From the NCBI GenBank assembly GCA_026188615.1, contig GCA_026188615.1_4525.1: 64,000 nucleotides of DNA, one strand, 5' to 3'. Position 1 is the first letter of the stretch. Every line of letters begins with the position of its first letter. The notes below the pieces were generated by a model that worked only from the letters and a program-made list of their open reading frames with translations, searched no databases and was not told the DNA's origin. Origin of the DNA: a phage. Below, piece by piece: positions 7,663 through 15,817 of this stretch. Position numbers and translations under genes: made by a program.

Positions 7663-8004
7663 TTAAAAGAATTTAAATTTTTTCTTGGTCCGTTCATTAA
7701 AAGCTTGTTGTACTTGCATTGTAATACATTTTTCAACATGTGGTGCAAGTTCTGCTTTTCTGTCCTGGTCAAGAACTGCAAAGTCCATTACGATTTTACC
7801 ATCAACCCAGTCTAGTTTTGTAATATAGACTATATGATGAGAACCATCTTCAAGCGTAATCAGAATCTCTTGAATGACATTTTCCATTGCTGAACGGATA
7901 ATTTTAAGAGATTCATTAAACACTCGTTCTTTGCGAATGTCTTCCCCTTCCGAAGAAGGGGATTCATCAACGATTTCTAGATTTAAATCATCGAGATTAT
8001 TCAT
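7663..8004 (-). CDS. 40: gp40-like protein (head vertex assembly chaperone position)
   Basis: Internal ATG MNNLDDLNLEIVDESPSSEGE immediately after uvsX stop; ~114 aa as T4 gp40; synteny. Confidence 0.6.
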   Translation of the reverse strand: MNNLDDLNLEIVDESPSSEGEDIRKERVFNESLKIIRSAMENVIQEILITLEDGSHHIVYITKLDWVDGKIVMDFAVLDQDRKAELAPHVEKCITMQVQQAFNERTKKKFKFF

Positions 8005-9169
8005 CGAAATCTTCCATTTCGTCAAGGTCGTTTTCAATATCTGCTGCAGACGGAGCATCAGAAGCTTTAACAGGAACTTTAGTTGTTGCTTTGCAATTAA
8101 TAAGGTCGTTAACAGCGTCATCAACTTCTTTAATAGAAGAGATAGCACCTAGTTTATATTTAGTTTCAATTGCATCTCGGAAAGGTTTGTGTTTAAACAA
8201 CGGTCCCCAGAATTCTACACAATCAGTAGCTTTAGCACGCCACGATTTCTCTTCACGAATCATTTCGCCTGTTTCTTCGTCAAGGAATTCACGAGCATAC
8301 CAACCAGCTTTAGGCTTAACTACAAAACCAATTTCAGTTGCCATTTCTAGCAAGCCGCTGAATGGGTCGATACCACCATCAAAATTAACCGTGATTGGGA
8401 AAGTAGATTTTTCTTTAACGGTGCGAGATTTTTCTGCTTTCAATGTGAAGTCATAACCGGTCAATTCTGTACCTTCTTTAACCTGACGTTTAGAGATAAA
8501 GAATACAGTGTTAGCAGAGTAAAGAATACCTGTACCACCACCCATAATCTCTTTAGGATACAATCCGCCAATTTCCATTGCGGTATGGTTAATTGCAACA
8601 CACGGAATATCTTTAATAGTCAGATAAGGAGTCACAATGCGGAACAGAGATTTAAGTGCCTTAGCACGAGACATATCACCTACAACTTTCTCGTTCAACG
8701 CATCTTCGGTTTCTTTCTTAGATGCAGTATTACCGATTGAATCGATAAAGATAATAACTTTATCACCGCGTTCAATAGCGTCAAGCTGATTAGTCATATC
8801 AACTTTAAGTTGTTCGACAGATTGAATCGGAGTATGAACTACTCGGTCTAAATCAACACCCATTGATCGAAAATAAGATTCTGAAGCACCAAATTCAGAA
8901 TCATAGAACAAACAAATTGCATCTTTATATTTCTTCATATATGCTGCAACCATAGTCAGCCCAAACAACGTTTTAAAGTGTTTAGAAGGAGCAGCAAAAA
9001 TAGTCAAGCCTGATTGCAATCCTGCATTCAGAGCACCACCTAGTGCAATATTCAACATCGGAATACGAGTAGGGACTTCATCACGATTATTAAACAGCTT
9101 AGACTTAGTCAAGTCTGCAGTCATTTTAGAAGTAGAAGCTTTAATCAGACGAGATTTTAAATCAGACAT
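7997..9169 (-). CDS. uvsX: recombinase UvsX (RecA-like)
   Basis: 390 aa; MSDLKSRLIKASTSK...GWYAREFLDEETGEMIREEKSWRAK matches T4 UvsX. Confidence 0.95.
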   Translation of the reverse strand: MSDLKSRLIKASTSKMTADLTKSKLFNNRDEVPTRIPMLNIALGGALNAGLQSGLTIFAAPSKHFKTLFGLTMVAAYMKKYKDAICLFYDSEFGASESYFRSMGVDLDRVVHTPIQSVEQLKVDMTNQLDAIERGDKVIIFIDSIGNTASKKETEDALNEKVVGDMSRAKALKSLFRIVTPYLTIKDIPCVAINHTAMEIGGLYPKEIMGGGTGILYSANTVFFISKRQVKEGTELTGYDFTLKAEKSRTVKEKSTFPITVNFDGGIDPFSGLLEMATEIGFVVKPKAGWYAREFLDEETGEMIREEKSWRAKATDCVEFWGPLFKHKPFRDAIETKYKLGAISSIKEVDDAVNDLINCKATTKVPVKASDAPSAADIENDLDEMEDFDE

Positions 9170-9267: not shown

Positions 9268-9816
9268 TTAACGAGCCCATTTGATAATTTCTGTAATCAA
9301 ATAATTACGTTCGCTTGCATTAAATCCTATAACTTTGTTAGCACCATCATGATTAAGTAATTGATACGTTTGGATTTTGTTATGAATTGCAAACTCTTCA
9401 AAATGTGAAATGGCTGTATTAAAACCGAATGAAGACAAAGTAATAAGGTCGTCTTCAAAACTTTCAGTCATTTCGTTACGTGTTAAAATAATTGTGAACA
9501 CATCATGGTTTTGGCAAAGACGAATATAATCCTGTTCATAAACGTCAAGAACCGAGTCCGCATCTTGTCGAATACGTCCATAAACCCAGTTACTAATATA
9601 TCCACGGTCTAACAGATAAATCTTAGTAGGGTCTAAATAATTCAACATCGTTTCGAAACAGCCAACTTCATTTCGAGACTTAACATCGAAACGTCCATCA
9701 ACTGTTCGTTTAGGGAAATCAATCTTTACATATCTTTCACTAATTTCCATTATGTCATTAATGAAAGTTGTTTTACCGGCATTATCCGGGCCATCTACTA
9801 AAATAATTTTAGCCAT
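9268..9816 (-). CDS. P-loop kinase-like protein (thymidylate-kinase-like Walker A)
   Basis: 182 aa; IILVDGPDNAGKTT and DRGYIS motifs; occupies the T4 beta-gt locus together with 9818..10717. Confidence 0.6.
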   Translation of the reverse strand: MAKIILVDGPDNAGKTTFINDIMEISERYVKIDFPKRTVDGRFDVKSRNEVGCFETMLNYLDPTKIYLLDRGYISNWVYGRIRQDADSVLDVYEQDYIRLCQNHDVFTIILTRNEMTESFEDDLITLSSFGFNTAISHFEEFAIHNKIQTYQLLNHDGANKVIGFNASERNYLITEIIKWAR

Positions 9817-9817
9817 T

Positions 9818-10717
9818 TTATTCCTCGATTACGACATCTTCGTATTTAGGTATATTATACGGCGAAGAAATTAAAGCATTAAAGTAGATGAACTCACCAA
9901 GACCTGGATGGAATACTTCTTCAGGATTTTCGAAATATTGAATCTTCGGACGTCCTTTAAGAATTTGATAGTACTCAGTTTTAGTTGGTTTAAAAATTCG
10001 AATCAGCGCTTCTTCAGGATACTTATTTCTGTCGAAGCTATTATTTGGATCGGTTATATAAAGCGGTTGGCCTAATTGAATTGCACATTCAACCACTTGT
10101 TCAAAACGATAGCACGGGTCACTAATTCGAAATGGATGAAAAATACCATCTAGATGAATAGGAGCCAAATCACCTACAAGACGCTGCATGATGGAAGGAC
10201 GTATAACTTTCTGAGTTACGATAATCTTATTACCATCTGCACCTGCGTTAACCAGCACTTCTTTTTGACGTTCATTCAACACAGTAGTTTGAAGTGAACT
10301 ATTAACTGACAACATATCGGTTTTTAAGAATTCGTCAATATAAAAACGTGGTTTATTAGGGTCTGCCGTGATATTGAAATTGAATTCTACATCAAAAGCG
10401 CCGTCATAACCAGTGATATCTGTTATTAGAAAATCACAATCATAATAAGCAATTAATGAATCAACCACAAATTCATTTTCAGACCAGAAATATTTACGAG
10501 TGTTATACGCGTTATCTTTATACCATAATGGAACAAACTTAAATTCTGGGAAAAGACGTTCACATTCTTTAATATCAGATGCATTACGTGGATATGTAAT
10601 CACATCACCTGGATTAGCACGGTGCAAATGAAGTTGGAAGTTGCCATCCTTAAGGATAGCATACTGTCCAGTTTCATAAGACCGCATACTCAAGATAGGT
10701 ACGCGGAAAATAGCCAT
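9818..10717 (-). CDS. hypothetical protein (299 aa) in place of beta-glucosyltransferase
   Basis: No recognisable motif; TAATG stop/start overlap with gene 42, 1-nt gap to downstream kinase-like gene. Confidence 0.6.
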   Translation of the reverse strand: MAIFRVPILSMRSYETGQYAILKDGNFQLHLHRANPGDVITYPRNASDIKECERLFPEFKFVPLWYKDNAYNTRKYFWSENEFVVDSLIAYYDCDFLITDITGYDGAFDVEFNFNITADPNKPRFYIDEFLKTDMLSVNSSLQTTVLNERQKEVLVNAGADGNKIIVTQKVIRPSIMQRLVGDLAPIHLDGIFHPFRISDPCYRFEQVVECAIQLGQPLYITDPNNSFDRNKYPEEALIRIFKPTKTEYYQILKGRPKIQYFENPEEVFHPGLGEFIYFNALISSPYNIPKYEDVVIEE

Positions 10718-11433
10718 TAGTCAAGGAATCCTTTAACATAATCAAAATCACGTTCAAACACATGGGCACTTACCATGGTATGAGTATAATCACCAACTTC
10801 TACACCGCATTCGTTAGCGATATAATGAAGTAATTTTCCTTGGAGATAAAAATCCAACTGCATAACAACAGCACAGTTCTGAGAACGCATATGGCAGTGG
10901 GTATAAAGCTTACCATCACGAATATAATAAGTCACTGAGTCAGTACATGGATATTCAAGCGTTTCGTCTGAATCAAGCAAAGCCTGATCAGAACTTTCTA
11001 GAATTTGGAACACAACTCTTCGGGAGTTAGGCTTCTCTTTAAGTTCTTTTAGAAGAGCTGGTAATTGGGCCGCAATGCGAGGACCATAGAAAGTGTTGAA
11101 GTTCGCCGGCAAAACATCTGATTTTGGTTTAGAAATAAATTTAGCGACATTAGGATATGCCTTAAACGCTTCTTCTGCGTTGGTACCACCAGAAATCATA
11201 AACTTCCAGAAGTCTTCGGCATATTCATAAGAGATGCGGTTAATACGTGGGTCGGTCATTTTGAATGATGATGGAGTGTCAACAACTACTGTCATAGACC
11301 CAATTTCATTACAACGTCCAATACGAGAATCAGTTACGAATTCCGGGTTTTCTAAAATTTCACGATTGACTGCTTTAAATGCGGTTTGAAAATCTGCGGC
11401 TTTGATATATTTCATTGTGTTATGTTTTCCCAT
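10717..11433 (-). CDS. 42: thymidylate-synthase-family dCMP hydroxymethylase (gp42-like)
   Basis: 238 aa; SRRVV, YPCTDSVTYYIRDG, HMRSQN and QLDF align to T4 gp42 NPDSRRGIM / FMCTNTVQYLIRD / NMRSND / RNDY motifs. Confidence 0.75.
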   Translation of the reverse strand: MGKHNTMKYIKAADFQTAFKAVNREILENPEFVTDSRIGRCNEIGSMTVVVDTPSSFKMTDPRINRISYEYAEDFWKFMISGGTNAEEAFKAYPNVAKFISKPKSDVLPANFNTFYGPRIAAQLPALLKELKEKPNSRRVVFQILESSDQALLDSDETLEYPCTDSVTYYIRDGKLYTHCHMRSQNCAVVMQLDFYLQGKLLHYIANECGVEVGDYTHTMVSAHVFERDFDYVKGFLD

Positions 11434-11452: not shown

Positions 11453-11476
11453 ATTATATACTCAATTCATAAAGCT
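11453..11476 (-). promoter_or_regulatory. middle-promoter-like element (AGCTTTA box + TATAAT)
   Basis: MotA-like box 11 nt upstream of TATAAT, ~20 nt upstream of gene 42 ATG. Confidence 0.4.
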
Positions 11477-11715
11477 TATTTGAATTTCTTGGCAATGTTG
11501 ATATAACGTAAAGCTTCAGAATCTATACTTCCAAGAACACTATGAAGGAATGCATCAGTGTAGTATTCCAATTGAACAGGTTCTTTAATCACTTTAGCCG
11601 CTTTGGTTTCAAACAGGCCCATAAGGGCCTTTTTAAGAATTTGTTCGTTAGTGTTCAGTTTCATAGTCAAAATCTCTTCGTTAAGTTTATAATTAAAACT
11701 TTTTCTAGAAATCAT
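11476..11715 (-). CDS. hypothetical protein (79 aa)
   Basis: ATGA start/stop overlap with upstream 386-aa gene; soluble, no motif. Confidence 0.5.
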   Translation of the reverse strand: MISRKSFNYKLNEEILTMKLNTNEQILKKALMGLFETKAAKVIKEPVQLEYYTDAFLHSVLGSIDSEALRYINIAKKFK

Positions 11716-12872
11716 TCCGGGTACCTCAAAGCGTCATCAGAGTTAGTTATATCAATAATAGATATGGAGTTTTCTGCTAACCCGTTTTTAGATAATTGAC
11801 GTTTATAATACCTTTCACAATATGTACACGTTGACCCACAGATTTCATTAGCACAATCAAAATCTGGATGTCTGAACCACCTTTTTTCTAAAAAGCCATC
11901 TAACAAAGAGGTTTCAATATTTACTGTATGTGAAAACTCAGTCTCATTTTCAAGAGTGAAAATAGTCTCTAAAGGCTTCCACAGTTCTAACAAATTACCT
12001 TCAAACTTTTCAGAAGCGTATGCTTCAAGAACTTTCAAAATGTAGTCTGTGCTACCTGTACGTCCTGAAACTTTGAATTGAGTGATACCAATATCATTAT
12101 AAAGTTTCAAATCTTGAGGACGAACAAAACGAGTTCTCAACCAGTTAAATGGGTCTGTATCACGAGCTTTAATACAGTGCTGCATTGGATATCCGTTTAA
12201 GGATTTAGCATCATCAGCTGTAACATCAGTACTATGGAAAATATAGCAAGAGTCACGATAGCTACAATGTGTTGTATACCCTTTACCAGCATTAGAACAG
12301 AACTCATTTACAAGAACTTCAAATATTATATTGTTCTTATTGCAAAACTCTGCTGCACGCTTCAGGAAAGAAACTGAACGGTTCTTATGAATTCCACAGC
12401 AGACCTTTTTGATATTATATTGGTCATGCAAGTATTTGATTTGAGTTACAGCATCGACATGTAGAATTGTTGAAACTTCAATCTCAATGTCTTTATTGAC
12501 TTCACGAACAATTTCCATAACAACAGGGTTAGCGATAGTAATACGCCATACGCCTATTGACCAAAGATACTGAACATAATCCTGAATAGCTTTCTTCTTC
12601 CACTCAACTAGTTCTCTTTTTGAACCAGGATTTATCGTGTTGAGTGTATAGTTAAAGCAAATACCTAATTCGTTACAACGTTTAACGTAGTCTTCTAACA
12701 TCTTTTTGTCAACGTCAGGAAGCCTAAAATCAGGTCTGGCTGCTACAAAAGCCATTTCTCTTGTAGAGCCGTATACTTCGTTTATCAAGCTATTAGGATA
12801 AGTTTTATTGAGCTCTACGATTTTATCAAGAAGAGCTAAATCAAAATTCGTTCCGATTTTAAAAGTATTCAT
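11712..12872 (-). CDS. Cys-rich hypothetical enzyme (386 aa)
   Basis: Multiple Cys clusters (KVCCGIH; NEFCSN...HCSYRDSC; C-terminal CANEICGSTCTYC); weak resemblance to Fe-S/TIM-barrel enzymes, not assignable. Confidence 0.55.
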   Translation of the reverse strand: MNTFKIGTNFDLALLDKIVELNKTYPNSLINEVYGSTREMAFVAARPDFRLPDVDKKMLEDYVKRCNELGICFNYTLNTINPGSKRELVEWKKKAIQDYVQYLWSIGVWRITIANPVVMEIVREVNKDIEIEVSTILHVDAVTQIKYLHDQYNIKKVCCGIHKNRSVSFLKRAAEFCNKNNIIFEVLVNEFCSNAGKGYTTHCSYRDSCYIFHSTDVTADDAKSLNGYPMQHCIKARDTDPFNWLRTRFVRPQDLKLYNDIGITQFKVSGRTGSTDYILKVLEAYASEKFEGNLLELWKPLETIFTLENETEFSHTVNIETSLLDGFLEKRWFRHPDFDCANEICGSTCTYCERYYKRQLSKNGLAENSISIIDITNSDDALRYPE

Positions 12873-12928: not shown

Positions 12929-13330
12929 TTATAGATTCGGTTTATATGATTTAAATGTTTCGAATTCGCCTTTATTCATAAGAGCTTTGAATTCGTCAGG
13001 ACGCATAGCTTTGTCGTCGATAATCCAATCATATACTGGTTTATGTGTTAGCAAATTATGGTACTTCAAACCAATGTTTTCCAAGTTCTGAATCAGACTT
13101 GGGAGAATGTCAATTGCTATACGACCAGGACCTACTGACTTCATACCACGAGCAGTGTAAAGCGTTATGGTATGCCCTGCATCATACAGGGCATTAATGG
13201 CAGACACCATTTCGACGTCTGGTTTGAAGTTCACGTAATCACGATTGTTATTCCATTCCGTGATGCAATCATCGACATCAAAACAAAGATTAAGCATGTT
13301 TTCTACACGGTGCATTAGATTCGTTCCCAT
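12929..13330 (-). CDS. HAD-superfamily phosphatase (KdsC-like small sugar-phosphate phosphatase)
   Basis: 133 aa; motif I FDVDDCIT, motif II ITLYTAR, motif IV WIIDDK; 16-nt overlap with upstream gene. Confidence 0.65.
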   Translation of the reverse strand: MGTNLMHRVENMLNLCFDVDDCITEWNNNRDYVNFKPDVEMVSAINALYDAGHTITLYTARGMKSVGPGRIAIDILPSLIQNLENIGLKYHNLLTHKPVYDWIIDDKAMRPDEFKALMNKGEFETFKSYKPNL

Positions 13331-15000
13331 TGATGAGTGATATCGCCACCGATTGGACGATAGGAAACACCAGTTTCTTTATCAGTTAGTACCCATTTAC
13401 CCGGATTTTTTGTAATCAGAGTAGCCGTTACAGGTTCTGCTACGTCATAACTAATAGAGCCGTCTTGAAGTACACGGCCCATGTTACGTAATTGCTTAGT
13501 CAGAAGTTCCATACCTTTATAATATGCGGCTACCGCTTTAAGTGGATTATTCTTGAAATAACCACCTAATGCAATCCAGATAATTGCTACAGCCAAATGA
13601 TGATACTCGTTAAACGAACTCATCTTTCCATATTTGTAAACTAATGGATTGATGTTAATAGTCACATTACAAGTTGTTTCATCAATAGTAAACTGTCCCC
13701 AGGCCGGATTAGCATTGAATTCATCATAACCTGAAACAGCATAAAGCACTTTAGCTTCATCATATAATTTTGGCCCGTAAATCTTGGTTTCGCCAAAATA
13801 TCCACGAGGGTCGATAAACTTGACTTCACCGTTATCAGTAATCATAGTATTACTGAAGTTCGGGTCACCATGAATAACAGAGTACTGTCCCTGAGAACGA
13901 TTATGATAACGAATAAGGTGTTCTAAAGCTTGTTTCAGCATTGGCTTCAGACGTCCAATCTTAGTGTAGTTCACATGTGTGATTTTACCAAATGAATCAA
14001 TCAATGGTTGAATGCTTTCACAACGATCAATAACTTTCGTATAGAATTCTTTAGTGAAATCACGACGAACAGTTTCAGGACTTACAAAATAAGTGTCTGT
14101 GCTGAATTTCAGTGCATCTAAAATTGCATCAACAATTTGTGGACGAGCAAGACTTGATTTGGATTTAATATATTCAAATGCCGGCTTACCTTTAATGCGT
14201 TCCATTTCAAAATTATTTTCATTAACAGAAACTAACTGAGGAACTGAATCTGATTTCACTTTAAGATACCATGAAATCTCATCTTTCTGAAGAGCTCGAC
14301 CCTGTTCGGTTAATGCGAATTTAGTTACAGTTTCTTCACCAATTTCAACTGCATTAAAACTACGGTTCAGTTCACGAACTTCATGAGCTTTTTCAAGTTT
14401 AGGCATATCACCTAAATCAATTAGATTCATAAGCTCTGATTTATTGAATGCGCTACCGTAAAGGAATTCTACGAAATCACGTCCTTTGCAGTATTCATGA
14501 ATTTCTTCATCGGTGGAACCCATATAGAATTCCCAGTCTTTGAACTGATAAATTCCTACAACATTACCACCTGTTGAACCTACGTTAGTGATATTTTCAC
14601 CGTCGAAATTATATCGACATTCGTCACCCTTAACATAGATTGCGTTAACATTCCAAGACCATGAACCAAAATCCGGAATAATATCACACCAGTTAACAAT
14701 TACATTATGGCCGTCTAAATCTTTGTGTAATTTAGCAAGAGCATAAGCAGAACCATACGCTTCATCAACTGTACGAATAGTCACATTGAACCCTTCTTGC
14801 TCACAATAAGCTCGAACAGTTTCAGCAAATTTTGAATGAACTACTACAATAATTTCATCTGCGCCAAGGTCAGAATAAATTGTATACAAATTGCTCAGAA
14901 TAGTGTCTTGTTTATAGTTAACAAGCACCTTAGGAATATGATGCGTTATTGGATACAAACGAGTTGCCAGTCCAGCACCAAGAATAACAGCTTTTTTCAT
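13315..15000 (-). CDS. bifunctional sugar-1-phosphate nucleotidyltransferase / APH-type sugar kinase
   Basis: 561 aa; N-terminus KKAVILGAGLATRLYPIT (RmlA/GalU-type G-x-G-T-R-x-x-P-x-T); C-terminal VIHGDPNFSN...KFIDPRGYFG (aminoglycoside/choline-kinase-like). Confidence 0.7.
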   Translation of the reverse strand: MKKAVILGAGLATRLYPITHHIPKVLVNYKQDTILSNLYTIYSDLGADEIIVVVHSKFAETVRAYCEQEGFNVTIRTVDEAYGSAYALAKLHKDLDGHNVIVNWCDIIPDFGSWSWNVNAIYVKGDECRYNFDGENITNVGSTGGNVVGIYQFKDWEFYMGSTDEEIHEYCKGRDFVEFLYGSAFNKSELMNLIDLGDMPKLEKAHEVRELNRSFNAVEIGEETVTKFALTEQGRALQKDEISWYLKVKSDSVPQLVSVNENNFEMERIKGKPAFEYIKSKSSLARPQIVDAILDALKFSTDTYFVSPETVRRDFTKEFYTKVIDRCESIQPLIDSFGKITHVNYTKIGRLKPMLKQALEHLIRYHNRSQGQYSVIHGDPNFSNTMITDNGEVKFIDPRGYFGETKIYGPKLYDEAKVLYAVSGYDEFNANPAWGQFTIDETTCNVTININPLVYKYGKMSSFNEYHHLAVAIIWIALGGYFKNNPLKAVAAYYKGMELLTKQLRNMGRVLQDGSISYDVAEPVTATLITKNPGKWVLTDKETGVSYRPIGGDITHQWERI

Positions 15001-15041: not shown

Positions 15042-15185
15042 CTAGTTAAAGCATTCATACTTTGCTTGTAGTCCAATCATAATCCATCCAATTACAAGTG
15101 TTGGAATCATTACTGGAGCCGTTAAGCTCCAGTAGATAGTCATGACAAGCATCAATAGTAAAAGTCCTATTGTTATTGCTTTCAT
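15042..15185 (-). CDS. small hydrophobic peptide (47 aa), not in ORF track
   Basis: MKAITIGLLLLMLVMTIYWSLTAPVMIPTLVIGWIMIGLQAKYECFN; its ATG overlaps the TGA of the SIS gene (ATGA); ends 42 nt before the nucleotidyltransferase start. Confidence 0.5.
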   Translation of the reverse strand: MKAITIGLLLLMLVMTIYWSLTAPVMIPTLVIGWIMIGLQAKYECFN

Positions 15186-15817
15186 TGTTCGCCTCGTAAC
15201 ATGGCACCTAGTGCACCGCCTGGATGGAACTTAAGGAAATCATTAGAGGTAAATCCGCGTTCAGACGAAAGGTTGATAGCGAACGTATCGATAAGCGCTA
15301 ACAACAATGTAGTAGACATTGTCGGAGCTAAAGAGTTCTCGTCAACTTCTACTGCGATGCCTGTACAGAAAGAGTAATCAAAAAGGGCTTCATTTTCTTG
15401 TGGAATGTCTGGGTTACAATGCAACAGAATCTGTTTGACGTTCGGTCGAATCATTTTAAGATGCTTAGCCACGCCTATCATTTCTTCAGTTTTACCAGAA
15501 CGACTAATATGAATCAACACGTCATTAGGCGCAATAAATCCTGCATCACCGTGAGAATAATGTCCAGTGTTCAAGTACATACTCGGGATACCGAGTGAAG
15601 CAAATGTCTCAGAAGCTTTAGTTGCAATATTAGCATTCTTACCAACACCTGTAATAATTACTCGGCTTTCATAATTACTAAGTCCCGGGCGTCGAAGAGT
15701 TTCTAGAATAGCATTATAACGAGCAGGGTTTTGACTAATTACTTTGGCCATAGCGGCCAAAGAAGAAGCTTGTTTTATGATTGCGTCAATAGCGATAGTA
15801 ATAGGAGTAGTTTTCAT
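15182..15817 (-). CDS. SIS-domain sugar-phosphate isomerase (KdsD/GutQ arabinose-5-phosphate isomerase-like, no CBS domains)
   Basis: 211 aa; GVGKNANIATKASETFASLG and FHPGGALG motifs typical of SIS isomerases. Confidence 0.7.
   Translation of the reverse strand: MKTTPITIAIDAIIKQASSLAAMAKVISQNPARYNAILETLRRPGLSNYESRVIITGVGKNANIATKASETFASLGIPSMYLNTGHYSHGDAGFIAPNDVLIHISRSGKTEEMIGVAKHLKMIRPNVKQILLHCNPDIPQENEALFDYSFCTGIAVEVDENSLAPTMSTTLLLALIDTFAINLSSERGFTSNDFLKFHPGGALGAMLRGEQ

Follow-up and report, generated by a model that had tools for sequence, protein, structure and literature searches.

In phage T4, the gene for beta-glucosyltransferase (b-gt) lies between uvsX and gene 42, in the order uvsX-segA-b-gt-42. 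The question raised here is what occupies this slot in a 64,000-nucleotide stretch of phage DNA (NCBI GenBank assembly GCA_026188615.1, contig GCA_026188615.1_4525.1; "the window" hereafter means this whole stretch) and what the genes found there do. An earlier note on this DNA drew the comparison with T4, and it is borne out: the slot of T4 b-gt, between uvsX and a thymidylate-synthase homologue, holds a 299-aa open reading frame (ORF; 9818..10717) and a 182-aa ORF (9268..9816), both on the minus strand. Transcription runs from the thymidylate-synthase homologue (238 aa; 10717..11433, minus strand) through the 299-aa and 182-aa ORFs and then, across a 98-nt spacer, to uvsX (7997..9169, minus strand). 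The tight junctions that the note described are confirmed from the sequence. The first is a TAATG (10715..10719; the plus strand reads catta), in which the stop codon of the 238-aa gene and the ATG of the 299-aa gene share one base. The second is a TAAAATG (9814..9820; plus strand, catttta) with a 1-nt gap between the stop of the 299-aa gene and the ATG of the 182-aa gene, 5 nt upstream of which stands GAGGAA. The answer proposed here, which is considered probable though far from certain, is that the two genes form the final two cistrons of a hydroxylase-transferase-kinase run with coupled translation, within an arabinosyl-5-hydroxycytosine cluster, with the 299-aa protein being the transferase for the first sugar and the 182-aa protein a kinase for C5-oxygenated dCMP.

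The pathway itself is already known. It was worked out in 2025–2026, and both proteins are already annotated in RB69 and HY126. RB69 gp46:47 was labelled "arabinosyltransferase 1" and RB69 gp45 "nucleotide kinase", in each case from fold searches (PMC13326640, Table 1), and the same transferase/kinase prediction was repeated for Mosigvirus NP (PMC13390438). In published work RB69 gp45, DLP3 gp78 and RL38J1_214 are all called "nucleotide kinase", with no role given. Many T4-like phages that are candidates for therapy are shielded by arabinosylated 5-hydroxycytosine from restriction enzymes and from CRISPR systems that target DNA, and the same modification also exposes them to type IV systems.

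Judged by its sequence, the window is a Mosigvirus of the RB69/HY126 type. The 2.5 kb around the two genes are 99% identical at the nucleotide level to Escherichia phage mogra and to approximately 150 other Mosigvirus genomes, and RB69 ORF047c, ORF046c and ORF045c match the window DNA at 98–99% nucleotide identity. Identity to the HY126 counterparts is 296/299 residues (99%) for the larger protein and 177/182 (97%) for the smaller, which is 97.8% identical to RB69 ORF045c. The order of the HY126 cluster (isomerase, bifunctional enzyme, HAD, U32, thymidylate-synthase homologue, transferase, kinase, uvsX) is the same in the window and in RB69. In the RB69 record (AY303349; L067 2098..2998), one extra T at alignment column 545 splits the 299-aa ORF into ORF047c and ORF046c, a sequencing error noted in PMC13326640; the ORF is intact in the window and in approximately 150 relatives. 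Both ORFs are real genes, being conserved in approximately 345 phage genomes and giving confident fold models.

The 238-aa neighbour defines the base on which these proteins would act. The earlier note called it gene 42, a label that has to be given up, as the protein is only 25% identical to T4 gp42, the dCMP hydroxymethylase. Instead, it is nearly identical to PDB 9iqc (9iqc, 9ir2 and 9iqu are matched at E 8e-161), and it reads MRSQN...QLD where T4 gp42 reads MRSND...RND, so that the Asp at the position of ThyA D169 is absent. It thereby carries the D169N signature given for hydroxylases (PMC13326640), and the RB69 homologue, gp48, was shown to be a flavin-dependent 5-hydroxy-dCMP (5hodCMP) synthase (Lee et al. 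NAR 2026, PMC13326640). The window protein is therefore assigned to the 5-hydroxylase class, as a flavin-dependent dCMP 5-hydroxylase. Because the neighbour is of this type, the base is arabinosyl-5-hydroxycytosine and not a glycosylated 5-hydroxymethylcytosine (hmC). Arabinose was found in RB69 DNA in 2018 and was then described as arabosyl-hmC, with ORF003c proposed as the transferase (Thomas et al. 2018, PMC6024577). This assignment has since been corrected: in the DNA of RB69 and phage NP, the sugar is attached to 5-hydroxycytosine itself (5hoC; PMC13326640, PMC13390438). The RB69 base is beta-D-Araf-(1-3)-alpha-D-Araf-5-hydroxy-deoxycytidine, where the alpha linkage of the base-proximal arabinose comes from NMR (PMC13326640). 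Many GenBank records still label this type of gene dCMP hydroxymethylase or thymidylate synthase.

The 299-aa protein had been taken for an orphan, which it is not. It matches PHROG 3891 (E 8e-156) and has 138 database relatives, including forms of 345–380 aa on large metagenomic contigs, and its family is present in 349 phage records across Escherichia, Acinetobacter, Klebsiella, Serratia, Proteus, Yersinia and others. RB69 gp46:47, the HY126 299-aa protein and DLP3 gp79, all in PHROG 3891, are the same protein in the same slot after the dCMP hydroxylase gene, with no difference of substance. Outside phages, the family had a single match among 185,579 bacterial and archaeal species genomes. 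That match lies on a phage-sized 167-kb contig, which looks like a mis-binned T4-like phage, and a bacterial origin, or bacterial homologues, of the transferase was rejected on this ground.

The fold prediction that the earlier note had proposed points to a glycosyltransferase. The AF2 model of the 299-aa protein (pLDDT 95.3, pTM 0.90) has two Rossmann-like domains with an inter-domain cleft, which corresponds to a predicted GT-B fold and not to a non-transferase fold. Its best fold matches are sucrose-phosphate synthase, BshA and PimA. The H270-P-G block, R197 and K246 are invariant in the family; the last two could bind the diphosphate, to judge from their conservation. The E-x7-E donor motif is represented in the window protein by E267-x7-E275, where E/D at 275 is conserved and E267 is not conserved across the family. 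The place of the canonical motif is taken by the HPG...E block together with R197 and K246. From the model we infer that the protein is a retaining, GT4-type transferase with a minimal GT-B architecture, and a retaining fold type would fit the alpha linkage of the base-proximal arabinose. In Thanatos, a mono-arabinosylating phage, the 299-aa type is the only transferase type present (PMC13326640).

The two T4 glucosyltransferases, beta-GT (GT63, inverting) and alpha-GT (GT72, retaining), likewise use a UDP-sugar donor and an acceptor oxygen linked to C5 of a cytosine derivative. In contrast to these, the 299-aa protein is approximately 50–100 residues shorter, its predicted acceptor is a phenol-like 5-OH instead of a hydroxymethyl group, and its predicted sugar is a furanose pentose. 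In addition, a kinase gene always accompanies the 299-aa type of gene, apart from one locus described below, whereas T4 has no such kinase gene. Divergent orthology to T4 b-gt was considered and rejected, as the best BLASTP E-value was 3.7 and only the genomic slot is held in common; with no similarity between the two proteins, this is therefore a non-orthologous replacement at the same slot. The idea of a novel sugar transferase acting on hmC DNA thus survives in part. The b-gt slot and the surrounding cluster for an NDP-pentose (UDP-arabinofuranose, UDP-Araf) speak for a sugar transferase, but the acceptor is not hmC, given the 9iqc match and the MRSQN signature of the neighbour, and the protein is not novel, since it is the "arabinosyltransferase 1" of RB69.

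The 182-aa protein, equivalent to RB69 gp45, does contain the thymidylate kinase (TMK)-like Walker A sequence DGPDNAGKTT and the DRGYIS motif that had been pointed out in it. Its fold model (pLDDT 87.7) is that of a P-loop nucleoside monophosphate (NMP) kinase with TMK topology. The P-loop GxxxxGKT (G9, G14, K15, T16), D70-R71 and R113 are invariant in the family, and in the DR motif Gly stands at the third position, with Tyr after it. Known thymidylate kinases (vaccinia TMK, 2v54; human TMPK) have the same fold, with a P-loop, then an FP(K/E)R segment, and a DR motif after strand 3. However, the phage protein is approximately 25 residues shorter, scores far under the TMK models and has, in a lid region that also holds R113, an invariant acidic FxDDLI motif where thymidylate kinases have basic residues. 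Searches of PDB sequences, with the single sequence and with a profile, matched the P-loop only, and the profile aligned to PDB thymidylate kinases over residues 4–42 at E 0.005–0.08. A functional parallel is the T4 gp1 dNMP kinase, as the 182-aa protein is likewise predicted to be an NMP kinase that feeds modified dCMP to the dNTP pool. Remote homologues of the kinase are fused to a C-terminal MBD4-like HhH-GPD domain in which the catalytic Asp is kept (GKYAIDSF), on distant phage contigs (L063 6001..7074 and L064 127..1092). L063 also encodes dCMP deaminase, dUTPase, FMN reductase and SIS isomerase, together with homologues of thymidylate synthase (hydroxylase type) and of the 561-aa enzyme described below; the order in L064 is thymidylate-synthase homologue, kinase-glycosylase, transferase-like gene and family-A polymerase. 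The fusion connects the kinase with an enzyme that acts at the DNA level in this pathway and does not decide the substrate of the kinase.

The association of the genes is what extends the published pathway. The phage collection has 344 records with the kinase and 349 with the transferase, and the counts by genus are nearly equal. In all, 56 viral loci with a relative of the transferase and several metagenomic loci were fetched and scanned with profiles, giving 61 loci with a transferase homologue; these are not independent, although several unrelated phage groups are represented and the transferase identities lie between 25% and 99%. The kinase start lies −19 to +22 nt from the transferase stop in 41 of the 61, whereas 5 loci have the kinase gene directly upstream and 12 have it at another place in the cluster. 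A contig edge cuts off two loci and one lacks the kinase, so that it is present in 58 of 59 assessable loci. The adjacent thymidylate-synthase homologues all have the hydroxylase signature MRS[QN]N except one, and this one is at the kinase-less locus. Hydroxylase, transferase and kinase thus form a near-obligate triad, which is a new comparative result beyond the published pathway.

The triad does not depend on arabinose. It is kept in L004 and L032–L045, loci in which tblastn detects no gene for arabinose synthesis within 8 kb of the transferase, and it is also present in Rhizobium phage P10VF, where it matches RL38J1_214–216 of PMC13326640; RL38J1, a relative of P10VF, carries hexoses on 5hoC (PMC13326640). 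The kinase thus goes with the chemistry of the base and not with arabinose. Kinase, transferase and hydroxylase make up a portable core, whatever the sugar, that is common to enterobacterial, Acinetobacter, Rhizobium and uncultivated large phages. This core provides a simple genomic marker for glycosyl-5-hydroxycytosine DNA and sharpens a testable question, which is whether the first sugar is added to the nucleotide or to DNA.

The genes for sugar activation lie in the same cluster of the window, also on the minus strand. A 211-aa arabinose-5-phosphate isomerase (15182..15817; RB69 gp55) matches the NCBIfam models KpsF/GutQ (E 2e-32) and KdsD (E 7e-31). The 561-aa protein (13315..15000; RB69 gp52:53, PHROG 4098) is a homologue of AfhE, a bifunctional sugar-1-P nucleotidyltransferase and kinase that makes UDP-Araf (PMC13326640); here, residues 3–99 match Pfam NTP_transferase and kinase-like matches cover residues 308–409. 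A 133-aa HAD-type phosphatase (12929..13330; RB69 gp51, PHROG 1238, NCBIfam TIGR01689 at E 2e-13) is a homologue of AfhF, which in HY126 converts Araf-1,5-P2 to Araf-1-P (PMC13326640). Every step from ribulose-5-P to UDP-Araf has already been assigned to genes other than the two considered here (PMC13326640).

These elements can be arranged into a pathway with two branches. In the base branch, the thymidylate-synthase homologue would convert dCMP to 5hodCMP, a step shown elsewhere, and the 182-aa protein, as an active P-loop NMP kinase, would phosphorylate the C5-oxygenated dCMP toward the triphosphate pool. In the sugar branch, UDP-Araf would be made by the isomerase, the bifunctional kinase/uridylyltransferase and the HAD phosphatase, again by steps shown elsewhere. 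The branches would meet when the 299-aa protein places the first, alpha-linked arabinofuranose from UDP-Araf onto the 5-hydroxyl of 5-hydroxycytosine, after which a transferase of the ORF003c type, encoded outside the window, would add the second sugar on DNA. A role of the kinase in the base branch is the best reading because other genes cover sugar activation and the kinase persists without them.

Several points weigh against this assignment of the two proteins. No activity has been demonstrated for either in the accessible literature. With UDP-Araf or UDP-Arap as donor, the DLP3 homologue, gp79, failed to arabinosylate DNA that contained 5hoC (PMC13326640, data not shown there), and TH1_063, the probable counterpart in Thanatos, left plasmid DNA, dCMP and dCTP unmodified and was reported, as a purified protein, to form UDP-xylose from UTP and xylose-1-P (PMC12838424). 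TH1_063 was matched to the transferase family by its length (300 aa), by a locus tag beside the thymidylate-synthase homologue TH1_062 and by the synteny statement in PMC13326640, and not by alignment; its UDP-xylose result shows at most that this type of transferase binds a UDP-pentose. The 299-aa protein also does not pass GT4 sequence models, having no Pfam match at E 0.1 or better and no NCBIfam match at E 0.01 or better. As a search of PDB sequences likewise gave no match at E 1 or better, it was fair to say that the protein has no recognisable motif. It is acidic (pI 5.05; family median 5.15), whereas the pI of T4 beta-GT is 9.05. The 182-aa protein reaches 16.2 bits with the TMK model TIGR00041, for which the cut-off is 83.25, and PF02223 was not reported at E 0.1 or better. 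In addition, the T4-type dNMP kinase of RB69 (gp159) phosphorylates 5hodCMP and suffices, together with the hydroxylase, for 5hoC in E. coli DNA (PMC13326640); a second 5hodCMP kinase looks redundant beside it, yet is never lost. Finally, the pairwise distances of the kinase over 27 Straboviridae loci correlate strongly with those of the 561-aa enzyme (Pearson 0.93, Spearman 0.78).

The two substrates leave more than one order of events. By analogy with every known phage DNA glycosylation, the kinase may act on 5hodCMP and the transferase on replicated DNA; this order is the one leaned towards, though held somewhat short of probable. The main competitor reverses it. Here, the 299-aa transferase would arabinosylate free 5hodCMP, the kinase would be dedicated to the bulky arabinosyl-5-hydroxy-dCMP that a T4-type gp1 cannot handle, and the glycosylated dCTP would be polymerised, so that only the second sugar is added on DNA. 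Such a route accounts for the retention of a second NMP kinase in 344 T4-like genomes, every one of which has gp1, although RB69 gp1 takes 5hodCMP (PMC13326640), and it explains the negative assay of the DLP3 homologue. Single transferases were inactive on 5hoC DNA, and the authors of that study cannot say whether the first arabinosylation takes place on the mononucleotide or on DNA (PMC13326640). Transferase-then-kinase order with coupled translation, in 41 of the 61 loci, suits a pre-replicative route as well, as do the acidity of the transferase, unlike T4 beta-GT, and the small phosphorylated or acidic acceptors of its top fold matches.

Nevertheless, glycosylation ahead of replication is judged rather unlikely. 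It is without precedent: every phage DNA glycosylation known so far takes place after replication, and the later arabinoses are added on DNA (PMC13326640). The NMP sites of TMK-type enzymes are tight, and the pI and fold-neighbour evidence is weak. Moreover, triad phages that are not T4-like would need a 5hodCMP kinase anyway, and that need alone would explain the kinase in the module; a 5hodCMP kinase of the module's own would account for the gene in phages that would be without a gp1-type kinase. If true, the pre-replicative route would be the first pre-replicative DNA glycosylation known, and it would give a reason for the joint occurrence of the kinase, transferase and hydroxylase genes in unrelated phages.

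The distance correlations raise the further possibility that the kinase serves the sugar-nucleotide branch, for example in uridine-nucleotide recycling or sugar phosphorylation, and not the base branch. In the same 27 loci, its distances fit those of the isomerase (Pearson 0.85, Spearman 0.74) and the HAD phosphatase (0.82, 0.54) better than those of the transferase (0.70, 0.29) or the hydroxylase (Pearson 0.68), and the transferase and hydroxylase distances track uvsX. In loci resembling JS10/QL01 and Marfa, the kinase gene, 36–42% identical, directly follows the HAD gene. The correlation can be accounted for by the exchange of a linked block, as the divergence pattern suggests that the sugar-activation genes moved as a three-gene unit, which is the simplest reading. 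A role in the sugar branch is held improbable, since the steps from ribulose-5-P to UDP-Araf are all assigned (PMC13326640), the protein is folded like an NMP kinase and not like a sugar kinase, and the kinase stays beside the transferase without arabinose genes within 8 kb and in the hexose-using Rhizobium phages. A role as a sugar kinase proper was rejected on the same grounds of fold and gene retention. Of the two functions that the earlier note had offered, nucleotide or sugar-nucleotide kinase, the first thus agrees with the fold and the second is unlikely.

A set of loci resembling Marfa, JS10/QL01 and Proteus phage Pm5461 (L007–L009, L013–L017, L022 and L028) is without a phage arabinose-5-phosphate isomerase. 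In these loci, which are on viral contigs, the 561-aa enzyme (41–43% identity), the HAD protein and the kinase (36–42%) are much more divergent, whereas transferase, hydroxylase and uvsX are near the Mosigvirus versions.

The kinase might also be an ATP-dependent partner of the transferase on DNA, in a complex or as an activating subunit, without which the transferase is inactive. Coupled translation suggests that the two are made in stoichiometric amounts, 5hoC DNA was not modified by the transferase on its own (PMC13326640) and the distant kinases are fused to a domain of the MBD4 type, which binds DNA and flips out bases. A fusion of this kind can, however, merely reflect a shared pathway. 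Co-evolution of kinase and transferase was looked for by correlation of distance matrices and was not upheld, the kinase being linked to the sugar genes instead. That its distances follow the sugar genes argues against a tightly co-adapted transferase-kinase complex, and the Spearman coefficient of 0.29 shows that the two are not closely co-evolving. The kinase gene is 0.7–7 kb away from the transferase gene in 12 loci, and the protein keeps the full NMP-kinase catalytic set. An auxiliary role is accordingly ranked as slightly more improbable than one in the sugar branch.

The last two alternatives can be given next to no weight. The version of the earlier note, in which a new sugar transferase acts on hmC DNA beside a kinase for hm-dCMP or a sugar nucleotide, matches the b-gt slot and the 2018 description (PMC6024577), but it is contradicted by the 5-hydroxylase type of the neighbour and by the published base structure (PMC13326640, PMC13390438). 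An identity of the 299-aa protein as a UDP-pentose pyrophosphorylase, as reported for TH1_063 from the UDP-xylose that it formed in vitro (PMC12838424), is no more credible, as the GT-B model has no nucleotidyltransferase (GT-A-like or MobA-like) features, the 561-aa protein already supplies a nucleotidyltransferase domain, the activity can be a side reaction of a UDP-pentose binder or a contaminant, and the tie of TH1_063 to the family is the indirect one given above.

The preferred assignment, a first-sugar transferase and a kinase for C5-oxygenated dCMP behind the hydroxylase, leaves two genes of the cluster to be described. A 79-aa ORF (11476..11715, minus strand), the homologue of RB69 ORF049c (PHROG 8601, E 2e-50), is found in only part of the related loci. 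Next to it, on the same strand, lies a gene for a 386-aa protein of the peptidase U32 family (11712..12872; RB69 gp50; Pfam PF01136, E 7e-11). U32 proteins include RlhA, which forms 5-hydroxycytidine in 23S rRNA, TrhP, which forms 5-hydroxyuridine in tRNA, and UbiU/UbiV, which carry out oxygen-independent hydroxylation. The phage protein has ten invariant cysteines, eight of which fall into two groups of four (C192, C203, C209, C233 and C340, C345, C349, C352). As a member of this family, it could act as a cytosine-C5 hydroxylase that needs no oxygen, as a back-up to the O2-dependent flavin enzyme in the anaerobic gut. The RB69-type protein is listed only as a "sugar or heterocycle reductase" (PMC13326640). 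A search of PDB sequences gave no match to it, and HMMER found no match between the phage U32 profile and E. coli RlhA, UbiU or UbiV; hhalign gave weak matches at E 7e-4 (RlhA, probability 26%) and 3e-3. In L052, L054 and L055, the U32 homologue adjoins a distant transferase and kinase, and no thymidylate-synthase homologue was detected.

Some further observations concern the surroundings of these genes. A scan for promoters and terminators gave no signal above shuffled controls, and a hairpin that spans the stop codon of the kinase gene does not reach significance (z −1.39). A transposon-mutagenesis preprint on LC53 and Bas46 gives no essentiality data for the transferase or kinase genes. No flavin reductase gene was found in the Mosigvirus cluster of the window. 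On two unrelated phage contigs, flavin reductase genes (Pfam Flavodoxin_2, FMN_red) directly adjoin the hydroxylase-type thymidylate-synthase homologue or its kinase (L004 4739..5293 and L063 7068..7613), which fits a requirement for reduced flavin. The HAD and 561-aa genes of the window overlap by 16 nt with no insert, and in NRG-P0074 (L001 10271..11032) a homing endonuclease gene is inserted between the genes for the HAD phosphatase and the bifunctional UDP-Ara enzyme.

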